DNA from: Candidatus Porifericomitaceae bacterium
GTDB taxonomy: Bacteria > Pseudomonadota > Gammaproteobacteria > Porifericomitales > Porifericomitaceae
DNA: 64,000 bases
NCBI GenBank assembly: GCA_965212005.1
Contig: OZ243038.1
Location: forward strand, 1,857,440 to 1,921,439
Direction of reading: 5' to 3'
Position numbers and translations under genes: made by a program. Below, one piece after another: positions 7,927-32,459 of this stretch (its first letter is position 1; the number at the start of each line of letters is the position of its first letter). The notes under the pieces were generated by a model, which made no database searches, was not told where the DNA came from, and worked only from the letters and a program-made list of their open reading frames with translations.

Positions 7927-9582
7927 ATGCCAACCCTCGATTTCAAAGGCAAACCAATCGTTTACGCCCACCACCTTACCGTACCGTCAAGGCCGCTGGA
8001 GGTGGACGCGAAAAAATCTCTGCCGCCAAAGAGCAAAAAGCCCTCCCTCGACGATAACCTGATCATCCACGGCGACAACCTGCACGCGCTCAAGGCGTTG
8101 ATGCCGCGTTATGCGGGCAAAGTGAACTGCATTTACATTGACCCGCCCTACAACACCGGCAACGAAAAATGGATTTATAACGACAACGTGAACAGCCCGA
8201 TGATGAAGGAATGGCTGAAGGGCAAAAGCCCGGTGGACGGCGAGGATTTGGAGCGCCACGACAAATGGCTGTGCATGATGTGGCCGAGGTTGCAGTTGTT
8301 GAGGGAGTTGCTGGCAGAGGACGGGGTAATTTTTGTTTCTATTGATGATAATGAGCAGCATCGCTTGCGGATGATGATGGATGAGATTTTTGGGGAGGAG
8401 AATTTTATTTCAACTGTTATCTGGCACAAAATGGACAGCCCTAAAAATACAGCAATTCACATAAGCGAAGATCATGAAAGCGTACAGATTTTTGCAAAAA
8501 ATGCTGATATTTGGAGACCTAACAGATTACCAAGAACTGCGGAAATGCTAGCTCGGTATAAAAATCCGGATAATGACACCAGAGGACCGTGGTTGCTCAG
8601 TGATCTAGCTGCCAGAAATCGGTACTCGCGTGGACGCTACCCTATAACGACTCCTTCTGGGAACAGAATTAAAGGACCACCTGCTGGAAGTTTTTGGCGA
8701 GTAAGCAAGGAAAAATTTGATGAACTGGACGCGGATAATCGAATTTGGTGGGGAGAAACTGGTAATAACCGACCCGGGATAAAGCGATTTCTTTCAGAGG
8801 TTCAAGAAGGCGTTGTGCCTCGGTCTCTTTGGGAGTGGAAGGAGGTAGGAAGTACTCGACACTCAAAACAAGAATTGAGTGGAGTTATGTCCGCGCAGGC
8901 CTCCTCGGATATTTTCGTGACACCGAAACCTACGGGACTAATCAAACGTATCCTACAGATCGCATCAGACAAAAGCTCGGTTATCCTGGATTCTTTCGCT
9001 GGCTCTGGCACAACCGCCCATGCCATCCTTGCCCTCAACAAAGAAGACAGCGGCAACCGCAAGTTCATCCTTGTCGAATGCGAAGATAAGATCGCCGACA
9101 AAATCACCGCCGAGCGCGTCCGCCGCGTGATAAAAGGCGTCAAGCAATCAAAAGACGAAAACCTGAAAGCCGGCCTCGGCGGAAGTTTCACCTACTGCAC
9201 CCTGGGCGAAGAAATGAGCATCGAAAAAATGCTCACCGGCAAGAGACTCCCCGACTATGAAACCCTGGCCCGCCACCTTTTCTGGACCGCAACCGGACAA
9301 TCAGTAGACAAAATCCGCAACACAAGAGGCAAAGACGGCTTCTTCCATGAAACGAAAGACAGACTGTTCTACCTGGTTTACGAACCAAAACTTCCTTTCC
9401 TGCGCAGCACCGAATCCGCCCTGAACAGCGACCGCGCCGAACGGGTCGCCAAACAGGCAAAGACAAAAAAGAAAACCGCAGTCGTGTTCGCCACCCACAA
9501 ATTTGTCGGGCAAAAGGAACTAACCCGGATGGGAATAGTATTTTGCGGACTGCCATACGGGACTGCAACCAATCAAGGTTAA
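7927..9582 (+). CDS. mod: Type III restriction-modification DNA methyltransferase (Mod subunit, N6-adenine, beta class)
   Basis: The GDNLHALKAL...VNCIYIDPPYNTGNE motif IV lies near the N-terminus, and the SAM-binding motif I (ILDSFAGSGTTAHA) lies near the C-terminus. This order is typical of Type III Mod proteins (compare EcoP15I Mod). Confidence 0.85.
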   Translation: MPTLDFKGKPIVYAHHLTVPSRPLEVDAKKSLPPKSKKPSLDDNLIIHGDNLHALKALMPRYAGKVNCIYIDPPYNTGNEKWIYNDNVNSPMMKEWLKGKSPVDGEDLERHDKWLCMMWPRLQLLRELLAEDGVIFVSIDDNEQHRLRMMMDEIFGEENFISTVIWHKMDSPKNTAIHISEDHESVQIFAKNADIWRPNRLPRTAEMLARYKNPDNDTRGPWLLSDLAARNRYSRGRYPITTPSGNRIKGPPAGSFWRVSKEKFDELDADNRIWWGETGNNRPGIKRFLSEVQEGVVPRSLWEWKEVGSTRHSKQELSGVMSAQASSDIFVTPKPTGLIKRILQIASDKSSVILDSFAGSGTTAHAILALNKEDSGNRKFILVECEDKIADKITAERVRRVIKGVKQSKDENLKAGLGGSFTYCTLGEEMSIEKMLTGKRLPDYETLARHLFWTATGQSVDKIRNTRGKDGFFHETKDRLFYLVYEPKLPFLRSTESALNSDRAERVAKQAKTKKKTAVVFATHKFVGQKELTRMGIVFCGLPYGTATNQG

Positions 9583-9622
9583 CTCAAATCAACGGCAGCC
9601 ATTCCAACCCCAAAGGTAACCA

Positions 9623-11719
9623 ATGAGCAAAGAAACAGGAAAGCTCGCACAAAGAGCAAAACAGCTTTACGAAGAAGAAAATTGGAACGAATTGATCCCA
9701 GTAGCCACTGAGTGGATTGATTTGGAACAAGAACCGGAAAGGCAAGCACAGGCATACAATGACCGTGGCTTTGCCTACGCCCGAAAAGGCGATTATGACC
9801 ATGCCATTGCAGATTTTGATAAGGCAATAGCATTGGCACCCCGCGATGCGATGGCATACAGCGGGCGTGGCCTTGTCTACGCCGAAAAAGGTGATTATGA
9901 CCGTGCCATTGCAGATTGTGATAAGGCAGTAAGATTGGCACCCCGCGATGCGATAGCATACCGCCGGCGTGGCATGATCTACGCCAAAAAAGGTGATTAT
10001 GACTGTGCCATTGCAGATTTTGATAAGGCAATAGCATTGGCACCCCGCGATGCGCTGGCATATAGCCGGCGTGGCGATGCCTACTACGAAAAAGGCGATT
10101 ACGCCCGTGCTATTGCAGATTTTGATAAGGCAGTAGAATTGGCACCCCGCGATGCGCTGGCATACAGTGGGCGTGGCATGTTCTATGTTCAAACAGGAGA
10201 TTATGCCCGTGCCATTGCAGATTTGGGTAAGGCAATAAAAAGGGATCCTCGCGATGCGATGGCATACCGCTGGCGTGGCATGGCCTACGCCGAAAAAGGC
10301 AATTATGCCCGTGCCATTGCAGATTGTGATAAGGCAATAGAATTGGTTCCCCGCGATGTGATGGCATACAGCTGGCGTGTCAGGTCCTACATCGAAAAAG
10401 GCGATTATGCCCGTGCCATTGCAGATTGTGATAAGGCAATAAAATGGGATCCCTGCGATGCGATGGCATACCGCTGGCGTGTCTTTGTCTACGCCCGAAA
10501 AGGCGATTATGACTGTGCCATTGCAGATCTTAATAAGATAATAAAATTTACTCCCCAGGATGCGATGGCATACCGCTGGCGTGGCATAGCCTACGCCCGA
10601 AAAGGCGATTATGACCAGTCATTTGATGACCTAAACAAAGCGGTAAAACTTGATCCAGCACTACCATTTCGCATTCCAGAAACTTATATCGCAGATCAGA
10701 TAAAAACCATCTTTAAAACTGAGGATAAAACAAAATATGAAGCCTTTAAATTCTATTTTAGATTATCACAAGCAATTAAGGTCTTACAGAAAAAATTGTT
10801 TTATGCGAAAAAAACTGGAGTTGCCCATTACACATCCTTTCATACGATCAAACATCTTGGCCAAAAGGGGCGTTTTCGGCTTTACAACGCAGCCTATATG
10901 AATGACCCGGAAGAAGGGCGTATATTTTCTGAAATAATGAAAGAAGATCATAAGGTAGACGTAAGGAAATTTTATCCAGATAACGAAAACCTGTCTCATC
11001 TCTCTCCGGCCTATATAGGCAGTTTCGTCCAATTGGATTCCAGTGAACGGGATAAACTATTTCTGTGGCGAACGTATGGAAAACATGAGGCGAAGGAAGC
11101 GGCCGGATGCTGCCTGATCTACAGGCAGATGTGCTTTGCAAAAAGCTATCAACCCCAAATCGGCGCCATGCAACAACAACAATTGCAATATGATTCCCTA
11201 TCAACAGCGCAAACAGTAAAGAGTAAAAAACCAGAATCCAGTCGGGACACCAAACCGTGTCTTTATAAAATCATCTATAGGAACACGAAAGACCACAAAA
11301 AGCTCTCCCAAGAATTAAAAAAGCTTGCAGAATGCCTGAATAACATAAAGGATTTTATAGAAGGAATAGAACACAAAGAGGACAACAAAAACATATTAGA
11401 ACTTGCCCGTGCACTGCTTGACAGTATCCGTTTCCTTTTCAAAGGAAGCCATTACAGTGAGGAAAAGGAAGCCCGGGTGTGCAGTATTCGTTATTACAAG
11501 GCAGGTGGGACACAGGAATCGGATGAAATAAAAGTGGACACGGAACAGATTCCGCCACGTTTCTATTTGGATACCCCGGAAGCCTTCCAATTCAGCAAAG
11601 TAATACTCGGCCCGGGAGCACAGAATATCCCGGAATGGGAGCGGTGGTTCAAGGAACAATTTAAGAAGGATGTGGAAGTGCGACACTCCCAAATACCCTA
11701 CGGAACGCGTTCTTCCTAA
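9623..11719 (+). CDS. TPR-repeat protein (about 9 TPR units) with a C-terminal DUF2971-like domain
   Basis: N-terminal 34-aa repeats (GDYDRAIADCDKAIELAPRDAMAYSWRG...). The C-terminal ~350 aa carry the VAHYTSFHTIKHL...RLYNAAYMNDPEEG signature, which I associate with the DUF2971 family. AT-rich codon usage unlike the flanking genome. Confidence 0.6.
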   Translation: MSKETGKLAQRAKQLYEEENWNELIPVATEWIDLEQEPERQAQAYNDRGFAYARKGDYDHAIADFDKAIALAPRDAMAYSGRGLVYAEKGDYDRAIADCDKAVRLAPRDAIAYRRRGMIYAKKGDYDCAIADFDKAIALAPRDALAYSRRGDAYYEKGDYARAIADFDKAVELAPRDALAYSGRGMFYVQTGDYARAIADLGKAIKRDPRDAMAYRWRGMAYAEKGNYARAIADCDKAIELVPRDVMAYSWRVRSYIEKGDYARAIADCDKAIKWDPCDAMAYRWRVFVYARKGDYDCAIADLNKIIKFTPQDAMAYRWRGIAYARKGDYDQSFDDLNKAVKLDPALPFRIPETYIADQIKTIFKTEDKTKYEAFKFYFRLSQAIKVLQKKLFYAKKTGVAHYTSFHTIKHLGQKGRFRLYNAAYMNDPEEGRIFSEIMKEDHKVDVRKFYPDNENLSHLSPAYIGSFVQLDSSERDKLFLWRTYGKHEAKEAAGCCLIYRQMCFAKSYQPQIGAMQQQQLQYDSLSTAQTVKSKKPESSRDTKPCLYKIIYRNTKDHKKLSQELKKLAECLNNIKDFIEGIEHKEDNKNILELARALLDSIRFLFKGSHYSEEKEARVCSIRYYKAGGTQESDEIKVDTEQIPPRFYLDTPEAFQFSKVILGPGAQNIPEWERWFKEQFKKDVEVRHSQIPYGTRSS

Positions 11720-11753
11720 TCCCACTCAAAGCCCGCCAACAAACCACAGCGAA

Positions 11754-11850
11754 CGGCGGTCGTGTCTACCACCCACAAGTTTAGGGGGCAGAAGGAACGG
11801 ACGGAGAGGGGAGTAGTATTTTGCGAATTGAGACCCTTTTCACTACAATG
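11754..11850 (+). repeat. Diverged duplicate of the mod 3' terminus (last ~30 codons), located after the TPR/DUF2971 gene
   Basis: 11757-11832 (cggtcgtgtctaccacccacaagtttagggggcagaaggaac...gtagtattttgcg) aligns at about 70-75% identity with mod 9476-9560 (cagtcgtgttcgccacccacaaatttgtcgggcaaaaggaac...atagtattttgcg). The translation AVVSTTHKFRGQKERTERGVVFCELRPF compares with Mod AVVFATHKFVGQKELTRMGIVFCGLPYG. Confidence 0.8.
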
Positions 11851-11855
11851 AAGTA

Positions 11856-12962
11856 GTGGCAATGACTCCCTTCTCTCCATCGCACTGGGCTGCTTCCTGT
11901 ACACACCAGGAATGCTCATTACACCAGCTATCGCCATATATAGGAAAGCTAAAGAGCACGATCGCTCAAGACTTGATTCTGAAATACAGTAAACCAGGTG
12001 AGTTAGTAGTTGATGCGTTCTGTGGCAGCGGGACCGTACCATTAGAAGCTGCCCGCCTGGGGCGCAGAGTATTTGCCTCTGATACGAGTAGATATGCCGT
12101 CACACTAACTAAAGGGAAACTTAAGGCGCCAAACACAGCTAATGCTGCGCTTGCCTCTCTTGATAGTGTTTTGAAACACAGAAAGTCCCTGCCTACACCG
12201 GATATCAGGTATGTTCCTCGTTGGGTTAGAGCCTTCTTTCACCCCCACACACTCAAAGAAACGTTGCAATTTACAAGGTATCTCAAGCAGGAGCGTCAAT
12301 ATTTTCTGCTGGCATCTTTACTTGGCATTTTACATCATGAGCGTCCTGGGTTTCTATCGTTTCCAAGTAGTCACCTTGTTCCTTATCTTCGATCAAAAAA
12401 ATATCCCAGGGCAAGCTATCCTGCTCTTTATAACTATCGTCCACTGATTCCGCGCTTGACGGCAAAAATAAACCGAGCATTAAAACGACCGCCAAAAGAA
12501 GAATTGACCAAGTGGGTTGAAGGCATACGCCAGTCCTCTGTTGGATCTGTCAATTTGCCTAACTCTATTGACTGTGTTATTACAAGTCCACCCTATATGA
12601 ATGCGCTTGACTACGGGCGTGATAACCGTCTTAGGCTCTGGTTTTTGGGAGAATATGATATAGAATCATTAGATCGTCCCCTTGGGACTATTCAAGGTTT
12701 TACGCATGCAATAACGTCACTTGCCAAACAATTACAGCAAAAAGTGCGAGTGGGTGGCTATTGTATTTTTGTTATCGGCGAAAAATTGATAAGAAAGAAA
12801 GACAGGCTCCCTTCTGAAGAGTTAATGGAAATTTTTACAGTTCATGCGCCGGCAATTAGACTATGTAATATTATTAGTGACGTGATTCCTGATATTCGTC
12901 GCTCCCGCAGATATATTGCTGGAGTGAAGCAGGAAAATATTCTTGTATTTAGAAAATACTAA
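11856..12962 (+). CDS. DNA methyltransferase (N4-cytosine or N6-adenine, SPPY type)
   Basis: Motif I (ELVVDAFCGSGTVPLEAARLGRRVFASD) near the N-terminus and motif IV (ITSPPYMNALDYG) near the C-terminus. An SPPY motif is more typical of N4C methyltransferases. Start is GTG at 11856 or ATG at 11862. Confidence 0.75.
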   Translation: MAMTPFSPSHWAASCTHQECSLHQLSPYIGKLKSTIAQDLILKYSKPGELVVDAFCGSGTVPLEAARLGRRVFASDTSRYAVTLTKGKLKAPNTANAALASLDSVLKHRKSLPTPDIRYVPRWVRAFFHPHTLKETLQFTRYLKQERQYFLLASLLGILHHERPGFLSFPSSHLVPYLRSKKYPRASYPALYNYRPLIPRLTAKINRALKRPPKEELTKWVEGIRQSSVGSVNLPNSIDCVITSPPYMNALDYGRDNRLRLWFLGEYDIESLDRPLGTIQGFTHAITSLAKQLQQKVRVGGYCIFVIGEKLIRKKDRLPSEELMEIFTVHAPAIRLCNIISDVIPDIRRSRRYIAGVKQENILVFRKY

Positions 12963-12964
12963 TC

Positions 12965-15400
12965 ATGCGTAGAAATATTCCAGAGAAAACACAGTTTCTT
13001 GGAAAGAAGATAGATCGATTCCCTGACCATGAAATCAAAACGCATATTGCTACAGGGAACAATGGACATCTATTTCTTGCGTTTAATGAATCAACAAAAA
13101 GCAAACTTGCATTCAAAATTATTCCTGTCGATAATCTACTCAATGGATATTTAAATGAGGCAAAAAAACCTAACTCTTTAGAAAATCCATCCGTTGTTAA
13201 ATGCCATGATGTTGTTAAATATCCTGATTCAAAATTAAATTGCATAGTGTTCATATATGACTACGTTGAAGGTGAAAATCTTAGGGATTATATGAAGGAA
13301 AAACGATCAAATATAGATATACCATTCATTGAGAATTTTTTGAAAACCATGTTTGGATTATTATATGAACTTGATAGACGTGAATCTCAGCATGGTGATT
13401 TGCATCCTGGCAATATACTTGTTGCACACTCTGCATATGATTTATCAAGAAAAAAAACCTTCCGTGTGACAGATTTTGGTGTCGGAGAGTTAATTGGACA
13501 GGATGCTCATGCGAATGACTACCTGAATGTTGCAAACACGCTCAGGAAATTACTGGGTTGTGTAAAATATGGTGAGTGCGAGGGGCGGGACAGATATATT
13601 TACAATATTCTTAAGAATGATTTTTTGGGTAGGCACCTATTTGAAACAGACACTAGCGCAGACCCCTTGGCTTGCAACCCTTGGGGGCTGAACAACAAAC
13701 TAGAAAAATTGGATGCAGAGTGGAGAGACCAAAAACAGCCGGATCAAGATAAGCTTGAAACACCTTTTGATTATCCCAATTGTGAGCAAATTGGAAACTC
13801 TCATTTATTGCTTAAAAGTCTTTACTCAGACCGACTCCTTGGCTTATCTGAAATTCAGGAAAAAGCCAACCTCATGCTAACTGGACCTCGCGGATGCGGA
13901 AAGACAACGGTCTTTCGCGCTCTGAGTCTGGAATATTTGATTTCAACTCATGAGAGCAGTCCATCTGACTTGAAGTATATTGGCATCTATTACAGATGTG
14001 ACTACCTATACTTCTCCTTTCCTAGATATAAGCATCCCGAACGTACCGAGGCATTGGATATCCCCATGCATTTTCTTATTGTTACGCTGTTAGCGGCTAC
14101 ACTGGAGCAAATAGGTGCATGGGCAAAAGAATATTTCTCAGATCAATTAGCAAAGGAAGAGGAAGCTCTTGTTTCGGAACTGTGGAACATTTTTGAATGG
14201 GATGCCCCAGATGCTCCGAGCGGCAATCAATTGACTACTTTGGTCAATAGACTAAGAAAAGAAAGCAAGCGTGCCGTAAATAAACAACAGGTTGCTCATG
14301 TCGCAGCCGAACCTATCCAAGGCTATTTTGGCCCGGGAATTATGTTGCAAGCCTGTGCTTTTATTAGAAAAAAATTTACTTGTTTAGAAAATCGTCCTTT
14401 TTACTTCTTTATAGACGATTATTCTGCCCCAAAGATTACCAAAGAGTTGCAGGCAAATCTTAATCGATTAGTGATGCATCGCAGTCCAGATGTTTTTTTT
14501 AAACTCTCGACGGAAAGTCCTGTCTCTTTTGTGCGATATGATATTGATGGTAAGCAATTTGTTGAAAAGCGCGAATACGTTTTGTTAAATCTTGGATTAA
14601 GATATATTAAAGATGATTCAAATGATACTTTGGCTTTTCTTGAAGATCTTTTTAAGCGCCGATTTGCAGAGGTCTCAGGCTATCCTGTCGAAACACTTGA
14701 AGAGCTTTTAGGATCAAGACCACGCAATGAGAATGATACGGCTCGTGCCTTCCTAGATAAAGAAAAAAGGAATTATTATGCTGGACAAGATACAGTCGCT
14801 GCTATGTGTAGCGGTGATATTCACTATATGATTCGTCTTGTTGCCAGAATGGTAGAAGAAAATGGGGGTAAAGAAAGTCTCACGGATTGCGACACAATAC
14901 CTAAAATTTCAATGGAAAAGCAAAATGAATCAATTCGTGCTGCAGCAGGCGACTTCATGGAATCAATACGCACATTGCCTAAGACAGGCCCAATACTAAC
15001 AGAGGTTATAACTGCATTTGGAAATGTAGCACATTCTTATCTTATGCATGCAGTATCAAGAAATGAAGGAAAGGAAAATCCTCACCAGGCATCAAGGATA
15101 GAACCGTACGAAGGGTTGAATCTTTCTACTGAAGCGGAAGATATTCTTGAAGAGCTACTGCGTTACTCGGTACTCATTGAAGATCCTCGTGGAAAGAGCC
15201 GCAGAGGTGAGGTTGTCTCGAGATTTTACCTGCGACGTTACATAATCCCACATTTCCGCTTAACATTTAGTAAACGAGATTCCATTCAATTGGAAAATAG
15301 CCAGATTGAAATGCTCTTGCGTGACCCTAAAAAATTCAAAAACAGGATGATGTTGAAATTGAAAAGACATTTCAGTCAAAAGGATCTGTTTGAGTTATGA
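12965..15400 (+). CDS. Eukaryotic-like Ser/Thr protein kinase domain fused to a C-terminal P-loop NTPase (811 aa)
   Basis: Kinase subdomains in order: Gly-rich loop (IATGNNGHLFLAF), the lysine (LAFKII), the HGDLHPGNILV catalytic loop and the DFG motif (VTDFGVGE). These are followed by Walker A (LTGPRGCGKTT) and Walker B (FYFFIDDYS). AT-rich. Confidence 0.7.
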   Translation: MRRNIPEKTQFLGKKIDRFPDHEIKTHIATGNNGHLFLAFNESTKSKLAFKIIPVDNLLNGYLNEAKKPNSLENPSVVKCHDVVKYPDSKLNCIVFIYDYVEGENLRDYMKEKRSNIDIPFIENFLKTMFGLLYELDRRESQHGDLHPGNILVAHSAYDLSRKKTFRVTDFGVGELIGQDAHANDYLNVANTLRKLLGCVKYGECEGRDRYIYNILKNDFLGRHLFETDTSADPLACNPWGLNNKLEKLDAEWRDQKQPDQDKLETPFDYPNCEQIGNSHLLLKSLYSDRLLGLSEIQEKANLMLTGPRGCGKTTVFRALSLEYLISTHESSPSDLKYIGIYYRCDYLYFSFPRYKHPERTEALDIPMHFLIVTLLAATLEQIGAWAKEYFSDQLAKEEEALVSELWNIFEWDAPDAPSGNQLTTLVNRLRKESKRAVNKQQVAHVAAEPIQGYFGPGIMLQACAFIRKKFTCLENRPFYFFIDDYSAPKITKELQANLNRLVMHRSPDVFFKLSTESPVSFVRYDIDGKQFVEKREYVLLNLGLRYIKDDSNDTLAFLEDLFKRRFAEVSGYPVETLEELLGSRPRNENDTARAFLDKEKRNYYAGQDTVAAMCSGDIHYMIRLVARMVEENGGKESLTDCDTIPKISMEKQNESIRAAAGDFMESIRTLPKTGPILTEVITAFGNVAHSYLMHAVSRNEGKENPHQASRIEPYEGLNLSTEAEDILEELLRYSVLIEDPRGKSRRGEVVSRFYLRRYIIPHFRLTFSKRDSIQLENSQIEMLLRDPKKFKNRMMLKLKRHFSQKDLFEL

Positions 15401-16437
15401 ATGATACCTTATTGAAGGCAGATGAACAGTTACTTGTTATGGACTGGCCCAGTCTGCAAAAGATTGATGTACCTTCACTCAAGGCCAGTGACTTATATTT
15501 AGTATGTGTGGGCTTTGAAGATCGGGCTATAGAAACACTTCATCGAATCTGTGAGGCTGGAAGCAGGGAATTTTCGCTTGTTCTAGTGAACTATCGTCCA
15601 GAATATAAAGAGAATAGAAGAGAAGAGATTCTTGAAATCGCACGGCGGGCGGATTTGACAGTGCACGAGATTGTTTATGACCGAGAGAACCCGGCAGGTA
15701 TTGGAAAAGAGCTAGACTTCTCAGCAGATCGGATATTTGTGGATATTTCTGGCATGTCGCGTCTTCTCATAGTCCAAGTCTTGGTAGCACTAATCGGCAT
15801 TCAGGAACGGGCAATAAATATAATTTATGGTGAAGCAGCAGAATATTTCCCTTCTAAAGAACAATTCGAACGAGATCAGGCAAATGATGACAACAATTTG
15901 GAACATAGCTATCTATCTTCCGGGATTTTTGAAATAGCAATAGCGCCCGAATTAAGTTCTGTATCTATGTTAGGTGAAGCAATTAGATTGATAGCATTTC
16001 CATCACTTGATCATGTGCAACTCACCAATGTAATGCAAGAATTGCAACCTACTTATGCAGAATTTATTGATGGCATACCACCTGATGAAGGTAATGAATG
16101 GCGAACGGAAGCAATTCGAATAATTAATCATAGGACTATTAGTGCAGTTAAAAACCCTGTAACTCATCAAGCATCTACACTTGATTATAGAAAGACGTTA
16201 AAAATTTTGCTAGATATATACGAAGAGCGCAGCATGTTTGACCGACTTGTAATTGCGCCAACTGGCAGCAAAATGCAGGCTGTTGCCGTTGGTTTATTGA
16301 GATCTTTTCTTGACGATGTGCAAATTGTTTATCCAACGCCACATATTTTTACACACCCCAAGAGATATACATCTGGACTAAGTCAAATATATGAAGTCCA
16401 TATTCCATCTAAAGAAATACTTGCAAAATTAAAGTGA
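15397..16437 (+). CDS. Hypothetical protein with a Rossmann-like fold and possible CARF/SLOG-like sensor motifs. Translationally coupled to the kinase gene.
   Basis: ATGA overlap with the upstream stop. Beta-strand/Gly patterns (LYLVCVGFEDR, FVDISGMSRLLIV, LVIAPTGSKMQAV) are reminiscent of CARF D-I-T-G-G-x-K signatures. The assignment is speculative. Confidence 0.35.
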   Translation: MNDTLLKADEQLLVMDWPSLQKIDVPSLKASDLYLVCVGFEDRAIETLHRICEAGSREFSLVLVNYRPEYKENRREEILEIARRADLTVHEIVYDRENPAGIGKELDFSADRIFVDISGMSRLLIVQVLVALIGIQERAINIIYGEAAEYFPSKEQFERDQANDDNNLEHSYLSSGIFEIAIAPELSSVSMLGEAIRLIAFPSLDHVQLTNVMQELQPTYAEFIDGIPPDEGNEWRTEAIRIINHRTISAVKNPVTHQASTLDYRKTLKILLDIYEERSMFDRLVIAPTGSKMQAVAVGLLRSFLDDVQIVYPTPHIFTHPKRYTSGLSQIYEVHIPSKEILAKLK

Positions 16438-16502
16438 CTGCAGCAACCGGTAATAATGACAGTCATTTTTAAGGGAAGGAAATTGAGGTGGAAACAAAAT
16501 AA

Positions 16503-19049
16503 ATGCAACTCAAAACCTACCAACAAAAGGCCCTTGAACAATTAGACCGCTATCTTGAGGCGCTCAAAGAAGAGCGTCTGAAAAGTGAAAAAGCGGCGAC
16601 ATTTTTTGCGGAGCAGAACAGTGACGCTCCTGAAGACCTGAAAAATTATCCGCGCGCCGCATGGCAAACTCTGACGAAACAGGGCGTTCTCCCCAGCGTT
16701 GCAACGGGTCGAAATACCGAAATCCCCGACCCTATCCCCCGCACTGCAACCTCCGGCGACCCCATCCCCCACGTCTGCCTGAAAGTGCCCACCGGTGGCG
16801 GCAAGACGCTGCTGGGCGTCGCCGCCCTGGAACGTATCCAGCGGGACCCGGGCTTTGTGCTGTGGATTGTGCCGACCAGGGCGATTTACGAGCAGACTAT
16901 CATGGCTTTCCGAACCCGTGAACATCTCTACCGGCAGATGCTGGAGCAGATTTCCGGCGGCAAGGTGAAGCTGCTGCAGAAAACCGACCGCTTCACCCGG
17001 CAGGATACTGAAAACTACCTGTGCGTGATGATGCTGATGCTGCCGTCCGCCAACCGGCAGAGAGGAAAGGATTTCCTCAAGATATTCCGCGACAGCGGCA
17101 ATTACCCTTCTTTCTTTCCTGAACAGGACGACTTCGCCGCCAACCGGAAATTTGCCGAGAGGCATCCCGACCTTGAGCAAAACGAAACCGACGATTGGGC
17201 CAAACAAAGCCTTATCAATGTACTCAAACAGGTCCGCCTCACCGTGATTCTGGATGAGGCGCACAAGGCGTATGGACAAAATGACGCGAACAACAAGGAG
17301 TTTGTAAAGTCCGTCAACCGCCTGAATCCCCACTTTGTACTCGAACTTTCCGCCACGCCGAAAATCGGCATCAGTAATATCCTGGTTAACATATCGGGGA
17401 CCGAACTGTATGACGAGGAGATGATCAAACTGCCCATTGAGATTCACAGTTTCAGTAATTCCGACTGGCAGTATGCGCTTGCCCAAACCCAGGCGAAGTT
17501 AAGCCAACTGGAAAAAGAGGCGCGGCAACTAAAACAAAGAGAAAATCGCTATATTCGCCCTATCGCCCTGGTGCGGGTGCAGCGAACCGGCAAAGGGCAA
17601 AGAGAGCGGGGATACATTCATGCCGAGGATGCGCGGGAACATTTGATACAAAACCTTGCCGTGCCGGAAAATCAGATCCGGATTCAATCATCGGAACAAA
17701 AGGAACTCGAGGGTGAGGATTTGTTGAGTGAGGCCAGTCCCGTCCGCTGGATTATTACCAAAGACGCCCTGAAGGAGGGCTGGGACTGCTCGTTTGCCTA
17801 CGTGCTGGCGTTGCTGGACAACACCACGGCCACAACCGCCATGACGCAGATGGTCGGGCGGGTGATGCGGCAGCCCCATGCGCGCCGGATCGGGAACAGC
17901 AAGCCGCTGAACCAATGCTATATCTACTGCTATAACCAGGACGTGGGCAACGCGATTAAAAGTGTGAAAGCCGGCCTGGACAGAGGGGGACTGACGGGGC
18001 TTGGGGATGCCATTCTCGGCTACGGCGACGGTGAGGACGATGCGCCGAAGCCGATAACCGTGAAACGCCGGGGAAGATATAAGCGGTTGAACATCTTTCT
18101 TCCGCAGGTCTTGCACATACAGGGGAAAAAGTGGCGTCCCATTGATTACGACCGCGATATTCTGGGCGCGGTGGACTGGGGCAAGATTAACGGCGGTGGA
18201 GCGACCAATCTGGACGACAAAGACGTCATTCAGGAAATCAAGGCCACGGTTGATATTCAGGGGGAAAGTGATGTTTCCCAGAAAACGCTTGATACCGGGG
18301 AAAGTGTGACCCTGGATTATTTTGTCCGGCGGCTTACCGACATGCTTCCGAATCCGTGGCAGGCGGCGCGCGTGGCGGAGCGCTTTCTGAAACGGCACAA
18401 GGACAAAAAGCACGATGATGCGCAATTGCTGATCAACCGGATTTATCTTTCGGAAGTGCTAAGGCGCAGGGTGAAAACGGCCATTGACGGCAAGGCCGAG
18501 TCGGTGTTCCGGGGCAAGGTGCAGCAGAACCAAATCCGGTTTCATCTGGAAACCGATGAGCGGCTGGATTACGAACTGAACAGGTCGTTTGAGGTTTTTG
18601 TTTCCAGCAGAGAAAGGCGACTTCATGGTCCGCACAAGCCGATACAGCAGAGCCTTTTTTCTCCGGTTTACGAAAGCAGCTTTAACGATCTGGAAAAGGA
18701 CTTTGCGCTTTATCTGGACACGGATCAGGCAATCTATTGGTGGCACAGAATCGCTGCACGGCAGGCGTATTCCCTTCAGGGTTGGCGGCGGCATCGAGTG
18801 TATCCCGATTTTGTAGCCTGCCGGAAAAACGATGGAAAGCTGTTGATCCTGGAAACAAAAGGCATTCACCTGAAAGGCAACGAGGACACCGATTACAAGC
18901 AAAAATTACTGGAGATGCTGGAGAAAACGTATGAAACCGCCCTTGAAAGAGGCCAGTTCAAAGTACGGGAGCCGCCCGCCCAATTCAGGATGATGTTTGA
19001 GGATACATGGCCGGAGGACATGAACGAACTCCTCCAGGAAGGCAATTAG
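16503..19049 (+). CDS. res: Type III restriction endonuclease (Res subunit, SF2 helicase-like)
   Basis: Helicase motif I (LKVPTGGGKT), motif II DEAH-like (VILDEAHKAYG), and a QxxGRxxR-like motif (MTQMVGRVMRQP). The size (848 aa) and the position next to mod fit Res. Confidence 0.8.
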   Translation: MQLKTYQQKALEQLDRYLEALKEERLKSEKAATFFAEQNSDAPEDLKNYPRAAWQTLTKQGVLPSVATGRNTEIPDPIPRTATSGDPIPHVCLKVPTGGGKTLLGVAALERIQRDPGFVLWIVPTRAIYEQTIMAFRTREHLYRQMLEQISGGKVKLLQKTDRFTRQDTENYLCVMMLMLPSANRQRGKDFLKIFRDSGNYPSFFPEQDDFAANRKFAERHPDLEQNETDDWAKQSLINVLKQVRLTVILDEAHKAYGQNDANNKEFVKSVNRLNPHFVLELSATPKIGISNILVNISGTELYDEEMIKLPIEIHSFSNSDWQYALAQTQAKLSQLEKEARQLKQRENRYIRPIALVRVQRTGKGQRERGYIHAEDAREHLIQNLAVPENQIRIQSSEQKELEGEDLLSEASPVRWIITKDALKEGWDCSFAYVLALLDNTTATTAMTQMVGRVMRQPHARRIGNSKPLNQCYIYCYNQDVGNAIKSVKAGLDRGGLTGLGDAILGYGDGEDDAPKPITVKRRGRYKRLNIFLPQVLHIQGKKWRPIDYDRDILGAVDWGKINGGGATNLDDKDVIQEIKATVDIQGESDVSQKTLDTGESVTLDYFVRRLTDMLPNPWQAARVAERFLKRHKDKKHDDAQLLINRIYLSEVLRRRVKTAIDGKAESVFRGKVQQNQIRFHLETDERLDYELNRSFEVFVSSRERRLHGPHKPIQQSLFSPVYESSFNDLEKDFALYLDTDQAIYWWHRIAARQAYSLQGWRRHRVYPDFVACRKNDGKLLILETKGIHLKGNEDTDYKQKLLEMLEKTYETALERGQFKVREPPAQFRMMFEDTWPEDMNELLQEGN

Positions 19050-19189
19050 CGTATTTTTTAGGAGGCACGTATCAGGGATCATCTGCGCAGTCCAGCCTGC
19101 TGCTCCTGCCCCAGCGGGGCTTTTTGAGCATTGCCGGGGCGCACAGGTTGAGATTTCAAAAGCCATCGCCTATATTTCAGGGACCACCA

Positions 19190-21463
19190 ATGTCAACCCC
19201 TCCGAAAAAATCAACTAAGTCTATAAAAACCATTGGCGAATTCCTTGACTGGACAGGGAAACAGGAAGGCTCTTTGTTTCTCTATCGCGGAGTGTCTGCT
19301 CCCTACATGGAAATGGAAGCATCGGCATATCGCAGAATAAAGGAGAACCAGGAGGAAGATACGGTTCCTTCAAAAATATTTATCAATTATCACGAGCGAC
19401 TTCTGGATAGAGCCAGATTGGAGGGATTTGACGATCAACAGGGCAAGGATCCTTCCGACCTGGAATTACTTGCCAGGTTACAGCACTATGGCGCGGCAAC
19501 ATGCCTGATTGATTTTACCGCAGACCCTTTGATCGCATTGTGGTTTGCTTGCCAGGGAAGCGGGCAGACAAATGGAAAAGTCGTTGCCATGGCAACGGGT
19601 GATGTCCAAGACTTCGCCGCAGTGAAACACGAAGACTTGAAGAAGCCTGTCAAGGAATTCCTCAAGGAGGAAACACTGTGGAAATGGTCTCCTCGGCGCC
19701 AAAACAATCGCATTATTGCCCAGAAGTCAACGTTTATATTCGGAAAAAGTACGATCCAGGAGAGTTGCTACAAGACTGTCAAGATAGACAAAGAAAGCAA
19801 AGGAAACATTATTAATGAATTGTGGAATAGATTTGAAGTTACTGAGCAGTCCCTTTTTGGCGATTTTGTCGGTTTCTCTCTTGCCAATGCCCACGACAAA
19901 CCTTACAGCGACTATAACTCAGAAGACTATTTTATTTTTGGACTAACCTGCAGTCAGAGAAAAGAGTATCAGAAAGCGATAGATTATTACGACAAGGCGA
20001 TAGCGATTAACCCTGAATATACCGAGGCATATCACAATCGTGGTCATGCAAAGGATGCCTTGAGAAAGTATAAAGGAGCGATATCGGATTATGACAAGGC
20101 GATAGCCATTAATCCTAAATTGGCCGAGGCATATAACAATCGCGGCAATGCAAAGGATGCCATGGGCGAGCATAAAGGAGCGATAGCGGATTATGACAAA
20201 GCGATAGCCATTAATCCTAAATTGGCCGAGGCATATCACAATCGTGGCCATGCAAAGGATGCCATGGGCGAGCATAAAGGAGCGATAGCGTATTATGATA
20301 AGGCGATAGCCATTAACTCTCAATATGTCGAGGCATATACCAATCGCGGAGCTGCAAAGGATGCCTTGGGTGATCATCAAGGAGCGATAGCGGATTACGA
20401 CAAGGCGATAGCCATTAACCCTGAATATGCCGATGCATATAACAATCGCGGCAATGCAAAGAATGTCTTGGGCGAGCATAAAGGAGCGATGGTGGATTAT
20501 GGCAAGGCGATAGACATTAATCCTAAATATGCCGATGCATATTATAATCGCGGCAATGTAATGTATGCCTTGAGCGATCATCAAGGAGCGATAGCGGATT
20601 ATGACGAGGCGATAGCCATTAACTCTCAATATGCCGAGGCATATACCAATCGCGGCCATGCAAAGTATTCTCTGGGTGATCCTCAAGGAGCGATAGCGGA
20701 TTATGACAAGGCGATAGTCATTAATCCTAAATCGGCCGAGGCATATAACAATCGCGGAAATGCAAAGAATGTCTTGGGCGACCATGAAGGAGCGATAGCG
20801 GATTATGGCAATGCGATAGCCATTAATCCTCAATATGCCGAGGCATATAACAATCGCGGCAATACAAAGGGTGCCATGGGTGACCCTCAAGGGGCGATAG
20901 CGGATTATGACAAGGCGATAGTCATTAATCCTAAATTGGCCGAGGTATATAACAATCGCGGAAATGCAAAGAATGTCTTGGGCGACCATGAAGGAGCGAT
21001 AGTGGATTATGACAATGCGATAGCCATTAATCCTCAATATGCCGAGGTATATACCAATCGCGGCAATGCAAAGGGTGCCTTGGGCGACCCTCAAGGGGCG
21101 ATGGCGGATCATGATAAGGCGATAGCCATTAATTCTGAATTGGCCATGGCATATAACAATCGCGGCAATGTAAAGAATGTCTTGGGCGACCATGAAGGAG
21201 CGATGGCGGATTATGACAAGGCGATAGCCATTAATCCCCAATTGGCCATGGCATATAACAATCGCGGCAATGCAAAGAATGTCCTGGGCGACCGTGAAGG
21301 AGCGATAGCGGATTATGACAAGGCGATAGCCATTAATCCTGAATTTGCCATGGCATATAAAAATCGCGGCGATGCAAAGAAAGCCCTGGGCGACCGTGAA
21401 GGAGCGATGGCGGATTATGACCAGGCAATCGCCATTGACCCATCAATACGCCGAGGCATATAA
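19190..21463 (+). CDS. FRG-domain protein fused to a long TPR array (about 16 units)
   Basis: Start at the ATG 19190 (MSTPPKK...). The N-terminal 250 aa carry FLYRGVSAPY and LARLQHYGAATCLIDFTADPLIALWFAC, resembling the FRG-domain signature (FRGQ / QHYGLPTRLLDWT). The rest is 34-aa TPRs (AIADYDKAIAINPKLAEAYNNRGNAKDAMGEHKG). The C-terminus AIAIDPSIRRGI is shared with the downstream family. Confidence 0.7.
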   Translation: MSTPPKKSTKSIKTIGEFLDWTGKQEGSLFLYRGVSAPYMEMEASAYRRIKENQEEDTVPSKIFINYHERLLDRARLEGFDDQQGKDPSDLELLARLQHYGAATCLIDFTADPLIALWFACQGSGQTNGKVVAMATGDVQDFAAVKHEDLKKPVKEFLKEETLWKWSPRRQNNRIIAQKSTFIFGKSTIQESCYKTVKIDKESKGNIINELWNRFEVTEQSLFGDFVGFSLANAHDKPYSDYNSEDYFIFGLTCSQRKEYQKAIDYYDKAIAINPEYTEAYHNRGHAKDALRKYKGAISDYDKAIAINPKLAEAYNNRGNAKDAMGEHKGAIADYDKAIAINPKLAEAYHNRGHAKDAMGEHKGAIAYYDKAIAINSQYVEAYTNRGAAKDALGDHQGAIADYDKAIAINPEYADAYNNRGNAKNVLGEHKGAMVDYGKAIDINPKYADAYYNRGNVMYALSDHQGAIADYDEAIAINSQYAEAYTNRGHAKYSLGDPQGAIADYDKAIVINPKSAEAYNNRGNAKNVLGDHEGAIADYGNAIAINPQYAEAYNNRGNTKGAMGDPQGAIADYDKAIVINPKLAEVYNNRGNAKNVLGDHEGAIVDYDNAIAINPQYAEVYTNRGNAKGALGDPQGAMADHDKAIAINSELAMAYNNRGNVKNVLGDHEGAMADYDKAIAINPQLAMAYNNRGNAKNVLGDREGAIADYDKAIAINPEFAMAYKNRGDAKKALGDREGAMADYDQAIAIDPSIRRGI

Positions 21464-21940
21464 CAATCGCGGCGATGCAAAGAATGCCCTGGGCTACATA
21501 CAGACGGTATCCGCAGGGGAAACAGCAGGTGATGGCTGAAACGAGGGTTCCGTAGGGTAGGCCGGGACGGGTGCACTCCTATCGGACGGGCCCGGGGAGC
21601 CCCGGCGGAAAAGCGGGCAGGTGGTCATGGCCCTCAAAGAGCCAGTGCGACCTGTGCTGGCAGAACGAAACCACTGCTCTGTAACGAAGCTGAGCTGTCG
21701 ACAGCTGCGGGACTGCGCCAGGGCCCGTGCCGGCACCAGCTTACGCACTATACTTTGCTTGTTTTTGGGGGTATCTTTAAGGTTAAGCAGCGGGAAGAGG
21801 AGGCCGTCCGTAGTGGCAGCCATCTTGTTGACTGCATGGTAAAAAAAGCTTTGCGTAACGCCAGGAACGGGGTTTGCAGGCACGTCAGGCAAGAAGGCAA
21901 AGCAGGGGAGGAGCATACCCCTGCCCAAAGGAGTATCGCG
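21464..21940 (+). repeat. Conserved intergenic leader, copy 1 of 5
   Basis: About 470 bp, near-identical to 24305-24778, 27572-28045, 29327-29865 and 31198-31678. It ends with AAAGGAG-N7-GTG. Confidence 0.9.
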
Positions 21941-24304
21941 GTGTCAAAATCGACGAAAAAGCCAGCAGGGGCGAGACCCGCCGTCCGCCCGGCCGGAGGC
22001 TGGCATCCGTTGACGGGGCGCGCCCGTCGCGCCGTGTGCTGCCTGCTGTCCTGCCTGGTGTCGGGCCTGCCCGCGTTGATGCCCATCCCCTCGCTGGCTA
22101 CCGACGTCTACAAGTATCGGGACGACCATCAAGGAGCGATATCGGATTACGACAAAGCGATAGCCATTAATCCTCAAGATGCGAAGGCATATTATAATCG
22201 CGGCAATGCAAAGGATGACCTGGGCGAGCGCCAAGGAGCGATATCGGATTACGATCAGGCGATAGCCATTCACCCTCAAGATGCGAAGGCATATAGCAAT
22301 CGCGGCAATGCAAAGTATGACTTGGGCGACCATCCAGGAGCGATAGCGGATTACGACAAGGCGATAGCCATCAACCCTCAATTTTCCGAGGCATATACCA
22401 CTCGCGGAATTACAAAGAGTGACCTGGGCGACCGTCAAGGAGCGATGGCGGATTATGACAAGGCGATAGCAGAGTACGACAAGGCGATAGCCATTCACCC
22501 TCAATATGCCGAGGCATATAACTATCGCGGAGCTACAAAGCATGTCCTGGGCGACCGTCAAGGAGCGATAACGGATTACGACCAGGCGATAGCCATTCAC
22601 CCTCAATTTGCCGAGGCATATGCCACTCGCGGAGTTACAAAGACTTTCCTGGGCGACCATAAAGGAGCGATAGCGGATTACGACAAGGCGATAGCCATTA
22701 ATCCTCAAGATGTCGTGGTATATAACTTTCGCGGACACACAAAGACTTTCCTGGGCGACGATCAAGGAGCGATAACGGATTACGACCAGGCGATAGCCAT
22801 TAATCCTCAATATGCCGAGGCATATAACTATCGCGGAGCTACAAAGCATGTCCTGGGCGACCCTCAAGGAGCGATAACGGATTACGACCAGGCGATAGCT
22901 ATTAATCCTCAATATGCCGAGGCATATAACAATCGCGGAGCTACAAAGGATGCCTTGGGCGACCATCCAGGAGCGATAGCGGATTATGACAAGGCGATAG
23001 CCATTAACCCTCAATATGCCGAAGCATATAACAATCGCGGAGCTACAAAGGATGCCTTGGGCGACCGTCCAGGAGCGATGGCGGATTATGACCAGGCGAT
23101 AGCCATTAACCCTCAAGATGCTGAGGCATATAACAATCGCGGAGCTACAAAGGGTGACCTGGGCGATCCTCAAGGAGCGATATCGGTTTACGACAAGGCG
23201 ATAGCCATGGCATATTATATTCGCGGATTGATAAAGAATTTCCTGGGTGACGACCCTCAAGGAGCGATAACGGACTACGACAAGGCGATAGCCATTAACC
23301 CTCAATATGCGAAGGCATATAAAAAGCGCGGCGATGCAAAGTATTTTTGGGAAGACGACACTAAAGGAGCGATAACAGATTACGACAAGGCGATAGCCAT
23401 TAACCCTCAATATGTCGAGGCATATAAAAAGCGCAGCCTTGCAAAGCGTTTCCTGGGCGACCGTGAAGGAGCGATATCGGATTACGGCAAGGTGATAGCC
23501 ATTAACCCTCAAGATGAGAATGCATATATTATGCGCGGCTATGTAAAGCGTGACCTGGGCGACCGTGAAGGAGCGATATCGGATTACGACCAGGTGATAG
23601 CCATTAGACCTCAATATGACATTGCATATCGCTGGCGTGGCCTTGTAAAGAATGACCTGGGCGACCGTGAAGGAGCGATATCGGATTACGACCAGGCGAT
23701 AGCCATTAACCCTCAGTATGCGAATGCATATTTTAATCGCGGCTATGCAAAGAATGCCTTGGGCGACCGTGAAGGAGGGATATCAGATTACGACCAGGCG
23801 ATAGCCATTAACCCTAAATTTAACGAGGCATATCGCTTTCGTGGCCTTGTAAAGAATGACCTGGGCGACCGTGAAGGAGCGATAGCGGATTACGACCAGG
23901 CGATAGCCATTAACCCTCGATATGCGAAGGCATATAAAAATCGCGGCAATGCCAAGGATGCTCTGGGCGACCGTGAAGGAGCGATGGCGGATTATGACCA
24001 GGTGATAGCCATTTACGACAAGGAGATCGCCATTGACCCTCAATATGCCGAAGCATATTATGGTCGCGGAGTTGCAAAGGATGCCTTGGGCGATCGTGAA
24101 GGAGCGATGGCGGATTATGACCAGGCGATAGCCATTTACGACAAGGAGATCGCCATCAACCCTCAAGATGCCAAAGCATATTATAATCGCGGCGATGCAA
24201 AGTCTGCCCTGGGCGACCGTGAAGGAGCGATGGCGGATTACGACCAGGCAATCGCCATTGACCCCTCAATCGCCATTAACCCCTTAATACGCCGAGGCAT
24301 ATAA
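21941..24304 (+). CDS. Secreted TPR-array protein (family member 1, about 21 TPR units)
   Basis: GTG start 7 nt after AAGGAG. Signal peptide MSKSTKKPAG...TGRARRAVCCLLSCLVSGLPALMPIPSLA/TD, then 34-aa TPR units with the consensus AI(A/S)DYDQAIAINPQYAEAYNNRGNAKDALGDREG. Confidence 0.85.
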   Translation: MSKSTKKPAGARPAVRPAGGWHPLTGRARRAVCCLLSCLVSGLPALMPIPSLATDVYKYRDDHQGAISDYDKAIAINPQDAKAYYNRGNAKDDLGERQGAISDYDQAIAIHPQDAKAYSNRGNAKYDLGDHPGAIADYDKAIAINPQFSEAYTTRGITKSDLGDRQGAMADYDKAIAEYDKAIAIHPQYAEAYNYRGATKHVLGDRQGAITDYDQAIAIHPQFAEAYATRGVTKTFLGDHKGAIADYDKAIAINPQDVVVYNFRGHTKTFLGDDQGAITDYDQAIAINPQYAEAYNYRGATKHVLGDPQGAITDYDQAIAINPQYAEAYNNRGATKDALGDHPGAIADYDKAIAINPQYAEAYNNRGATKDALGDRPGAMADYDQAIAINPQDAEAYNNRGATKGDLGDPQGAISVYDKAIAMAYYIRGLIKNFLGDDPQGAITDYDKAIAINPQYAKAYKKRGDAKYFWEDDTKGAITDYDKAIAINPQYVEAYKKRSLAKRFLGDREGAISDYGKVIAINPQDENAYIMRGYVKRDLGDREGAISDYDQVIAIRPQYDIAYRWRGLVKNDLGDREGAISDYDQAIAINPQYANAYFNRGYAKNALGDREGGISDYDQAIAINPKFNEAYRFRGLVKNDLGDREGAIADYDQAIAINPRYAKAYKNRGNAKDALGDREGAMADYDQVIAIYDKEIAIDPQYAEAYYGRGVAKDALGDREGAMADYDQAIAIYDKEIAINPQDAKAYYNRGDAKSALGDREGAMADYDQAIAIDPSIAINPLIRRGI

Positions 24305-24778
24305 CCATCGCGACTATGCAGCCCCCTGGTCTACGATAAGACAGTATCCGCAGGGGAAACAGCAGGTGATGCCTGAAACGAGGGTTCCGTAGGGTAGGCC
24401 GGGACGGGCACACTCCTATCGGACGGCCCCGGGGAGGCCCGGCGGAAAAGCGGGCAGATGCCAGGGTCCTCAAAGAGCCAGTGCAATCTGTGTCGGCAGA
24501 ACGAAACCACTGCTCTGCAACGAAGCTGAGCCGCCGACAGCTGCGGGACTGGCACCAGGGCCCGTGCAGGCGCTGCTTACGCACTATACCTTGCTTGTTT
24601 TTTGGGGTATCTTTCAAGGTCAACGCAGCGGGAAGAGGAGGCCGTCCGTAGTGGTCGCCATCTTGTTGACTGCATGGTAAAAAAGCTTTGCGTAACGCCA
24701 GGAACGGGGTTTGCAGGCACGTCAGGCAAGAAGGACAAGCAGGGGAGGGAGCATACCCCTGCCCAAAGGAGTGCCGCA
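24305..24778 (+). repeat. Conserved intergenic leader, copy 2 of 5
   Basis: Near-identical to the other four copies. Confidence 0.9.
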
Positions 24779-27571: not shown

Positions 27572-28045
27572 CCATCGCGGTTATGCAGCCCCCTGATCTA
27601 CGATAAGACAGTATCCACAGGGGAAACGGCAGGGGATGCCTGAAACGAGGGTTCCGTAGGGTAGGCTGAGCCGGGCGCACTCCTATCGGACGGCCTCGGG
27701 GAGGCCCGGCGGAAAAGCGGGCAGATGCCGGGGTCCTCAAAGAGCCAGTGCAATCTGTGTCGGCAGAACGAAACCACTGCTCTGCAACGAAGCTGAGCCG
27801 CCGACAGCTGCGGGACTGGCACCAGGGCCCGTGCAGGCGCTGCTTACGCACTATACCTTGCTTGTTTTTTGGGGTATCTTTCAAGGTCAACGCAGCGGGA
27901 AGAGGAGGCCGCCCGTAGTGGCCGCCATCTTGTTGACTGCATGGTAAAAAAGCTTTGCGTAATGCCAGGAACGGGGTTTGCAGGCAGGTCAGGCAAGAAG
28001 GCAAAGCAGGGAAGGGAGCATACCCCTGCCCAAAGGAGTGTCGCG
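27572..28045 (+). repeat. Conserved intergenic leader, copy 3 of 5
   Basis: Near-identical to the other four copies. Confidence 0.9.
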
Positions 28046-32416: not shown

Positions 32417-32459
32417 CTTGCGGGCGGCAACGGATGCACGAATTGCGAAGCAAACGCAG

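Follow-up and report, generated by a model that had tools for sequence, protein, structure and literature searches.

Can a CARF domain govern a protein kinase, and could such a pairing serve bacterial defence? CARF and SAVED sensors control nucleases, proteases, deaminases, pores and transcription factors, and the control of a protein kinase by a CARF sensor has, to our knowledge, been predicted but not demonstrated. The question is raised by a stretch of 64,000 nucleotides (hereafter the window) from Candidatus Porifericomitaceae bacterium (contig OZ243038.1 of assembly GCA_965212005.1, positions 1,857,440 to 1,921,439 of the forward strand), in which a gene for a protein kinase joined to a P-loop ATPase is followed directly by a gene for a tandem-CARF (2xCARF) protein, both lying between the two genes of a type III restriction-modification (R-M) system. 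A first-pass annotation of the bare sequence had proposed this kinase-ATPase and putative CARF/Rossmann sensor as a gene pair of unusual architecture embedded in an R-M system. We found that both genes are real, but that a methyltransferase gene immediately upstream had been missed, and that the functional unit is a triad of methylase, kinase-ATPase and 2xCARF protein. This three-gene cassette is widespread and moves horizontally.

A conserved and mobile three-gene cassette

The two open reading frames (ORFs) of the original pair, of 811 and 346 amino acids (aa), read on the plus strand as first described, and the motifs then quoted all retranslate at the positions collected in Table 1. The 346-aa ORF starts within the stop codon of the 811-aa ORF (gagTTATGAatgat), giving the 4-nucleotide ATGA overlap that had been taken as translational coupling, and only 2 nucleotides separate the methyltransferase stop from the ATG of the kinase gene. 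Overlapping or abutting triad genes are found in relatives too, for example in loci L082-L084 and L081. The window copy spans 4.6 kb and is intact, with all catalytic motifs present.

In order to learn how far this arrangement extends, we relied on the family of the 346-aa protein, which has 985 database relatives in a word-indexed search and at least 856 clusters at 50% identity (189 of them at 1e-30 or below) when 1.84 billion representatives were searched exhaustively with a profile, nearly all of these clusters being free-standing proteins roughly 350 aa long. A scan of genomes that used the 346-aa sequence alone as query yielded no confirmed relative; a pattern scan built from the family alignment, with one genome taken per species, yielded 80 loci from many phyla. 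Synteny was scored by tblastn with the window proteins in the 66 informative loci, namely those having enough upstream sequence, and in 60 of them the methylase, the kinase-ATPase and the 2xCARF gene were all complete, in the same order and on the same strand. The triad loci belong to Nitrospirota, Binatia, Acidobacteriota, Verrucomicrobiota, Myxococcota, Planctomycetota, Proteobacteria and further groups; of those nearest to the window triad, many come from metagenome-assembled genomes with sponge-associated names (Poriferihabitaceae, Porisulfidus). Loss of synteny of the original gene pair in other genomes had been set as a refuting observation; the pair is kept in essentially all loci. The other six informative loci (L014, L026, L070, L075, L076 and L079) hold decayed or interrupted triads, in which the kinase-ATPase is truncated, insertions of several kb are present, or the methylase or the kinase-ATPase is missing, and this decay fits the frequent loss known for costly defence genes.

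The triad genes are also the only genes that these loci share. When the ORFs of the flanks were clustered all against all, no other gene was common to more than 16 loci, and the same clustering gave no integrase or transposase common to them. In 43 of 44 loci, the guanine-cytosine (GC) content of the triad falls short of that of its flanks (median difference -9 points), and it is also below that of the enclosing mod/res or Hma genes; therefore, the triad is a separate mobile module. No triad homologue was found in the phage collection, and a structure search of BFVD gave no meaningful match (TM below 0.3). The plasmid search gave one match only, on a Bradyrhizobium plasmid, where a diverged cassette encodes a 246-aa kinase and a 652-aa ATPase in separate overlapping genes. 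In a groundwater lineage, the 2xCARF protein of the same triad carries a C-terminal HisKA-HATPase_c histidine kinase, and in another lineage the 2xCARF protein of the same cassette carries a calcineurin-like phosphoesterase; both extended proteins (P0371 and P0319, Table 1) are still encoded downstream of the kinase-ATPase gene. These fusion and split variants point to three modules that are functionally tied, with the sensor feeding phosphorylation chemistry.

Properties of the three proteins

The 368-aa methyltransferase that opens the triad matches Pfam N6_N4_Mtase (E-value 8.2e-11) and PADLOC MTase_II (1.3e-20), and its SPPY (motif IV) and FxGxG (motif I) signatures are kept in at least 98% of 60 orthologues. 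Its target is likely DNA.

The 811-aa protein matches Pfam Pkinase over residues 24-185 (4.9e-13) and PF24389 (ORC-CDC6-like) at 2.9e-53, with a second PF24389 stretch that reaches residue 776, so that all of the protein after the kinase is one ATPase family. In an alignment of 60 orthologues sharing 29-67% identity, at least 98% keep G31, A49, K51, E65, H143, D145, H147, N150, D170 and F171 in the kinase, together with T306, G307 and R309-K313 of Walker A and I483-Y486 of Walker B in the ATPase. Agreement of this order goes well beyond chance. The kinase core and the P-loop NTPase of the first-pass annotation were thus both borne out, and since the catalytic residues are so widely kept, both domains look active from their sequences. 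The kinase has the Hanks-type bilobal fold, Gly-rich loop, AxK lysine, alpha-C glutamate, catalytic Asp and Asn and DFG aspartate, and the ATPase scores above the curated cut-off of the BrxC-like ORC/Cdc6-type AAA+ family PF24389 with intact Walker A and B motifs. The C-terminus of the ATPase is a basic region, helical and winged-helix-like. A protein is a likely but not certain substrate of the kinase.

The 346-aa protein matches no Pfam or NCBIfam family above threshold; Pfam Csa3_N stays below the cut-off here (0.046) and reaches 9.9e-06 in one relative. Among the PADLOC profiles, CARF6--CARF_CARF_CARF matches the protein end to end (2e-14), and the 1187-position CARF6--CARF_STK_AAA profile (PDLC01925) matches it with its C-terminal third (positions 875-1183, 3.8e-14) and the 811-aa ATPase with its positions 329-734 (1e-28). 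The PADLOC CasR and Csa3 profiles match the 346-aa protein as well. Its AlphaFold2 model, made with 32 homologues (predicted local distance difference test score, pLDDT, 83.6; predicted template-modelling score, pTM, 0.88), consists of two Rossmann-like halves with a disordered linker at residues 171-190. The six-stranded Rossmann-like core superposes on solved CARF domains, and its best structural matches are the cyclic oligoadenylate (cOA) receptors Can1, Card1, Can2, Csm6 and SAVED proteins. CARF domains bear the signature [DN]X[ST]XXX[RK] after strand 4, of which the basic residue is associated with nucleotide ligands (Makarova 2014, PMC4012209), and CARF domain 1 satisfies it, basic residue included, with D116-I-S118-G-M-S-R122 right after the strand formed by residues 112-116, in at least 98% of sequences. 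In CARF domain 2, strand 4 is followed by an invariant loop, T289-G-S-K-M-Q. The proposal of a CARF/Rossmann sensor, which had leaned on the DISGMSR and APTGSKM motifs, agrees with all of this. The protein ends directly after CARF domain 2 without an effector domain and is therefore a sensor-only tandem CARF; its alignment with the two domains of Can1 and the conservation of its pocket loops suggest that a nucleotide-derived ligand would bind at the pseudo-dimer interface of the two CARF domains.

Relationship to known systems

The architecture is not without precedent, since a fused form was described in 2014 and PADLOC profiles exist for it, and in this respect the first-pass annotation went too far. 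The fused protein (Makarova 2014, PMC4012209) joins a Zn ribbon, an S/T/Y kinase, an AAA+ ATPase with an arginine in its P-loop, a CARF domain and a winged helix-turn-helix (wHTH), and a role of CARF in a kinase-mediated pathway was suggested in the same work. The window proteins share with this family and with PADLOC CARF6 the kinase, AAA+ and CARF modules, one fused profile matching both of them, and also the P-loop arginine (R309 in GPRGCGKT), which is among the residues kept in at least 98% of orthologues. In contrast with the single polypeptide of the fused family, the window has two translationally coupled genes, lacks both the N-terminal Zn ribbon (there is no N-terminal cysteine cluster) and the wHTH after CARF, carries its CARF domains in tandem and has a dedicated methylase gene preceding the pair. 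By its profile matches, the cassette is a split variant within the CARF STK-AAA family, which computational surveys have already catalogued; the partnership with a methylase and the nesting in R-M operons extend this picture.

In its working, the cassette would most resemble a methylation-linked system of the bacteriophage exclusion/phage growth limitation (BREX/Pgl) type to which a CARF sensor has been added. BREX/Pgl systems rely on the joint action of a methylase and an ORC/Cdc6-type ATPase, to which type 2 adds a kinase, the type 2 set being the PglX methylase, the PglY/BrxC ORC/Cdc6-type ATPase, the PglW kinase and PglZ. The window cassette, however, is without PglZ, BrxB, BrxA and BrxL and adds the CARF sensor; its kinase is fused to the ATPase and not to a NERD nuclease (the PglW profile gives an E-value of only 0.014), and its methylase is a small SPPY enzyme and not PglX, which it matches at 1.2e-06 over 48 residues. 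PglZ had no PADLOC or Pfam match in the seven proteins scanned (7927-21463) and is not among the commonest neighbour families, and because PglZ is absent, we ruled out that the cassette is a member of BREX/Pgl.

MADS (mad1-8) is likewise a methylation-linked defence that requires a protein kinase, and its mad6 profile matches the kinase domain of the window protein (8.6e-15), but it comprises eight genes, which include a type I-like methylase and a specificity subunit, and has no CARF protein. We ruled it out as well, given that MAD6, MAD7 and MAD8 are mandatory and only a generic kinase-domain match to mad6 and a P-loop-only match to mad8 (2.4e-04) were found, with NCBIfam MAD6 at 31 bits against a cut-off of 460. 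Among the receptors, Can1 (6sce), a tandem-CARF nuclease that cyclic tetra-adenylate (cA4) switches on, shares 15% identity with the window 2xCARF protein, which differs from it in having no nuclease or other effector domain, and from Can1 and the SAVED receptors of cyclic-oligonucleotide-based anti-phage signalling systems (CBASS) alike in having no CRISPR or CBASS linkage. RtcR is similar in that it, too, couples a CARF sensor to an AAA+ ATPase with no CRISPR context, and some members of the RtcR-type CARF family, the ligand of which is not cOA, adjoin R-M systems (PMC4012209); RtcR nevertheless has a single divergent CARF without the basic residue and an NtrC-type ATPase that drives sigma-54 transcription, with neither kinase nor methylase.

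Proposed mechanism and alternative explanations

With confidence slightly above even, we propose that the triad is a BREX/Pgl-like, methylation-linked, autonomous mobile defence cassette, in which the output of the kinase is gated by a nucleotide-type ligand bound to the CARF protein. The methylase of gene 1 would mark host DNA as self, gene 2 would supply an active Hanks-type kinase joined to a BrxC-like ORC/Cdc6 AAA+ ATPase, and gene 3 would supply a stand-alone tandem-CARF receptor working as an intramolecular pseudo-dimer like Can1 or SAVED. Methylase and ATPase would together tell self from foreign DNA, as in BREX/Pgl, with the C-terminus of the ATPase reading the status of the DNA, and the tandem CARF would provide a second input by binding a small nucleotide-type ligand that arises during infection. 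Once bound to its ligand and in a putative complex with the ATPase, the tandem CARF would license the kinase, which would then phosphorylate targets in the host or the phage, or perhaps a helicase-nuclease encoded nearby, so that the infection is stopped. Such a triad could show what CARF domains sense without a cyclase and how BREX-like systems of ATPase plus methylase halt phage without a nuclease, and it bears on whether phosphorylation is a general output of bacterial immunity.

Several points weigh against this proposal. The methylase also has weak matches to RNA and protein methyltransferase families, and CARF domain 2 fits the strand-4 signature only in part, its A-P-T289-G-S-K292 having the T and the K at a shorter spacing. 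The kinase loop HGDLHPGN deviates from the Ser/Thr consensus HRDxKxxN, being non-RD and having His for Lys; the activation segment is short (aa 174-183 with pLDDT below 50) and has no APE motif, and the domain also matches ABC1/UbiB weakly. Both determinants of protein substrates, the HRDxKxxN loop and an activation segment ending in APE, are thus absent, and because of this the substrate of the kinase may not be a protein. The cassette contains no recognisable nuclease, other classical effector or signal synthase. We found in the literature no experimental study of a system composed of CARF, kinase, ATPase and methylase, and where CARF or kinases come up in the CoCoNuT and BREX papers, it is in other contexts only. 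In favour of the proposal, no cyclase family (Cas10, SMODS/CD-NTase or GGDEF) was among the 25 commonest neighbour families, in a check that took in the single largest neighbour per side in about 66 loci and not whole genomes.

More doubtful, though of interest should it be true, is a self-contained system in which a cyclase-independent tandem-CARF receptor directly gates the kinase on a BrxC-like DNA-scanning ATPase. Its ligand might be a SAM (S-adenosylmethionine)-related compound, a modified nucleotide or an RNA end, derived from infection or from metabolism, and helicase-nucleases next to the cassette, for instance type III Res or HmaA, may be licensed by it as well. It would be the first signalling route from CARF to a kinase, and would join methylation-based self-marking to sensing of the second-messenger type.

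The neighbours of the triad have to be considered here, given that it could be a non-autonomous, plug-in sensor or regulator, whose kinase switches a neighbouring helicase-nuclease (Res, HmaA or HsdR) according to the CARF ligand. This we regard as unlikely, even if it has real support in about a quarter of the loci. In the window, as in L001, L002, L003 and L007, the triad has the type III mod and res genes on its two sides, and in L065 these genes adjoin it; in L005, L006, L012, L015 and L016 it is enclosed by Hma genes instead, with HmaA (SNF2 helicase with NOV_C) on one side and HmaB/HmaC (DUF1156 methylase and DUF499 ATPase) on the other. The nearest large neighbour is most often a ResIII-type helicase (downstream in 9 of 65 loci, upstream in 9 of 55), and in the window the six genes from mod to res are co-oriented with short gaps and have a single convincing terminator-like hairpin, after res. 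The embedding in an R-M system reported at first is therefore correct for the window, but not general, since it is limited to the closest relatives, and in most relatives the triad stands without mod/res. Most loci differ in their nearest large neighbour and have no shared partner gene within 10 kb; moreover, the triad has its own methylase, and its GC content, which differs from that of the surrounding mod/res or Hma genes, indicates a separate origin. Unrelated insertions occupy the gap between mod and res in relatives, namely an insertion sequence (IS)-type transposase in L007 (4965-5750) and a PIN/VapC toxin in L003 (12013-12405), which suggests that this gap is an insertion hot spot and not a designed operon. 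Mod and res remain intact in spite of these insertions and of the TPR gene inserted in the window.

Improbable in our opinion is that the kinase-ATPase and the 2xCARF protein act as a trans effector of a type III CRISPR-Cas system or CBASS located elsewhere, activated by cyclic tri-, tetra- or hexa-adenylate (cA3, cA4 or cA6), even though the likeness to Can1, Card1, Can2, Csm6 and SAVED, the strand-4 basic residue and the matching PADLOC profiles with CARF-classification names, CasR and Csa3 included, all speak for it. The invariable partner is a methylase and not cas genes, Cas10, CD-NTase and SMODS are not among the commonest neighbours, nor do they occur in the fully annotated neighbourhoods of L086-L089, and RtcR is a CARF protein that functions without a cyclase (Makarova 2014, PMC4012209). 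A role outside immunity, either as an addiction or epigenetic module of a mobile element, in which the methylase would be the "antitoxin" and the kinase-ATPase the "toxin", or as a housekeeping phospho-signalling circuit, seems to us very improbable. Low GC content, a patchy distribution, frequent decay (with truncated or interrupted copies in L014, L026, L070, L076 and L079), the lack of a nuclease and the one plasmid-borne copy would suit such a module, but the triad lies consistently among restriction, toxin-antitoxin and defence-candidate genes (its other neighbours being PbeA, HEPN-MNT, Schlafen-like, PIN and UvrD-type genes), the loci have no integrase or transposase in common, no phage of the collection searched carries the cassette, and simple addiction needs no ligand-sensing CARF subunit.

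The window locus and neighbouring genes

The run in the window goes from mod through a TPR-repeat gene, the methyltransferase, the kinase-ATPase and the 2xCARF gene to res, tightly packed and all on the plus strand (Table 1). The run is part of a low-GC island (about 8-32 kb), where the kinase-ATPase and 2xCARF genes have 39% GC against about 61-64% in the host flanks. It is the flanking genes, and not those of the triad, that constitute a type III R-M system as defined by Mod plus a Res SF2 helicase-nuclease, and this operon is intact around the triad.

Table 1. Features of the cassette and of its surroundings; positions are those of the window unless a locus is named.
Feature	Position	Strand	Basis or remark
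Mod methyltransferase, type III R-M (551 aa)	7927-9582	+	PADLOC MTase_III 2.1e-169, full profile length
TPR-repeat gene, inserted; 358-aa C-terminal domain	9623-11719	+	Pfam TPR matches
Triad gene 1: putative SAM-dependent N6/N4-type DNA methyltransferase (368 aa)	11856-12962	+	Motif I FCGSGT, motif IV SPPY
Triad gene 2: kinase-ATPase ORF (811 aa)	12965-15400	+	ORF list
Kinase domain (about aa 1-260)	12965-13744	+	Hanks-type, non-RD loop HGDLHPGN; K51 13115-13117, HGDLHPGN 13391-13414, DFG 13472-13480
ORC/Cdc6-type AAA+ ATPase (aa 294-811)	13844-15400	+	Walker A GPRGCGKT 13883-13906, Walker B IDDY 14411-14422
ATGA stop/start overlap, kinase-ATPase gene and 2xCARF gene	15397-15400	+	Direct sequence reading
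Triad gene 3: 2xCARF ORF (346 aa)	15397-16437	+	ORF list
CARF domain 1 (about aa 31-165)	15487-15891	+	GFEDR after strand 1, DISGMSR after strand 4 (15742-15762)
CARF domain 2 (about aa 191-340)	15967-16416	+	Invariant loop TGSKMQ after strand 4; PTGSKMQ 16258-16278
Res helicase-nuclease, type III R-M (848 aa)	16503-19049	+	PADLOC REase_III 1.4e-208, full length; Pfam ResIII
Terminator-like GC hairpin and T-run, about 60 nucleotides after the res stop	19108-19125	+	Consensus scan
Extended 2xCARF variants (histidine kinase or phosphoesterase)	P0371 in L082-L084, 4047-6166; P0319 in L081, 264-2438		
Thymidylate-synthase neighbours	L019 12081-13013; L027 5206-6189; L031 826-2259; L041 5305-6240; L067 1353-2279; L085 10160-11083		

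The hairpin behind res is a possible end of the mod-to-res transcription unit; the promoter and terminator scan of the window was at background level overall, with terminator-like sites not above shuffled expectation. Downstream of this hairpin lies a promoter-like site (10-of-12 match, 19148-19176), and on account of both, the FRG-TPR gene that follows probably starts near 19190 and not at 19007. No tRNA marking an integration site was found in the window. The 358-aa C-terminal domain of the inserted TPR protein (10643-11719) has no Pfam match; a 38%-identical homologue adjoins a Mod gene in L004 (16165-17229). In the five paralogous TPR-repeat genes that occupy 19007-31200, a 102-nucleotide (34-aa) unit recurs more than 70 times with DNA identity of about 80%. 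The first of these genes (19007-21463) also has an FRG domain, with a match to the PADLOC defence candidate PDC-S15, and the long antisense ORFs over these repeats (e.g., 19943-21241, minus strand) look like repeat artefacts. An ankyrin-repeat protein (4069-5376) and many TPR proteins lie beside housekeeping genes, and those near the island include a squalene/phytoene synthase, PgpA and an HSP90-like gene (32418-34391). Taken with the sponge-associated names of the closest triad relatives, this gene content suggests a sponge symbiont as the source of the window.

In one lineage, represented by loci L086-L089, the triad shares an island with a UvrD-type helicase having MJ0043_C, a Schlafen/AlbA_2 protein with HATPase_c_4, an MNT-HEPN pair, DUF433 and a nucleoside 2-deoxyribosyltransferase; there, the kinase-ATPase gene appears as two called genes in L089 and is shortened in L088. 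Five distant lineages and a Bradyrhizobium plasmid have a gene for a flavin-dependent thymidylate synthase (ThyX, PF02511) directly beside the triad and on its strand, and one further locus has a ThyA-type neighbour. This adjacency may point to some connection with pyrimidine or modified-nucleotide metabolism.

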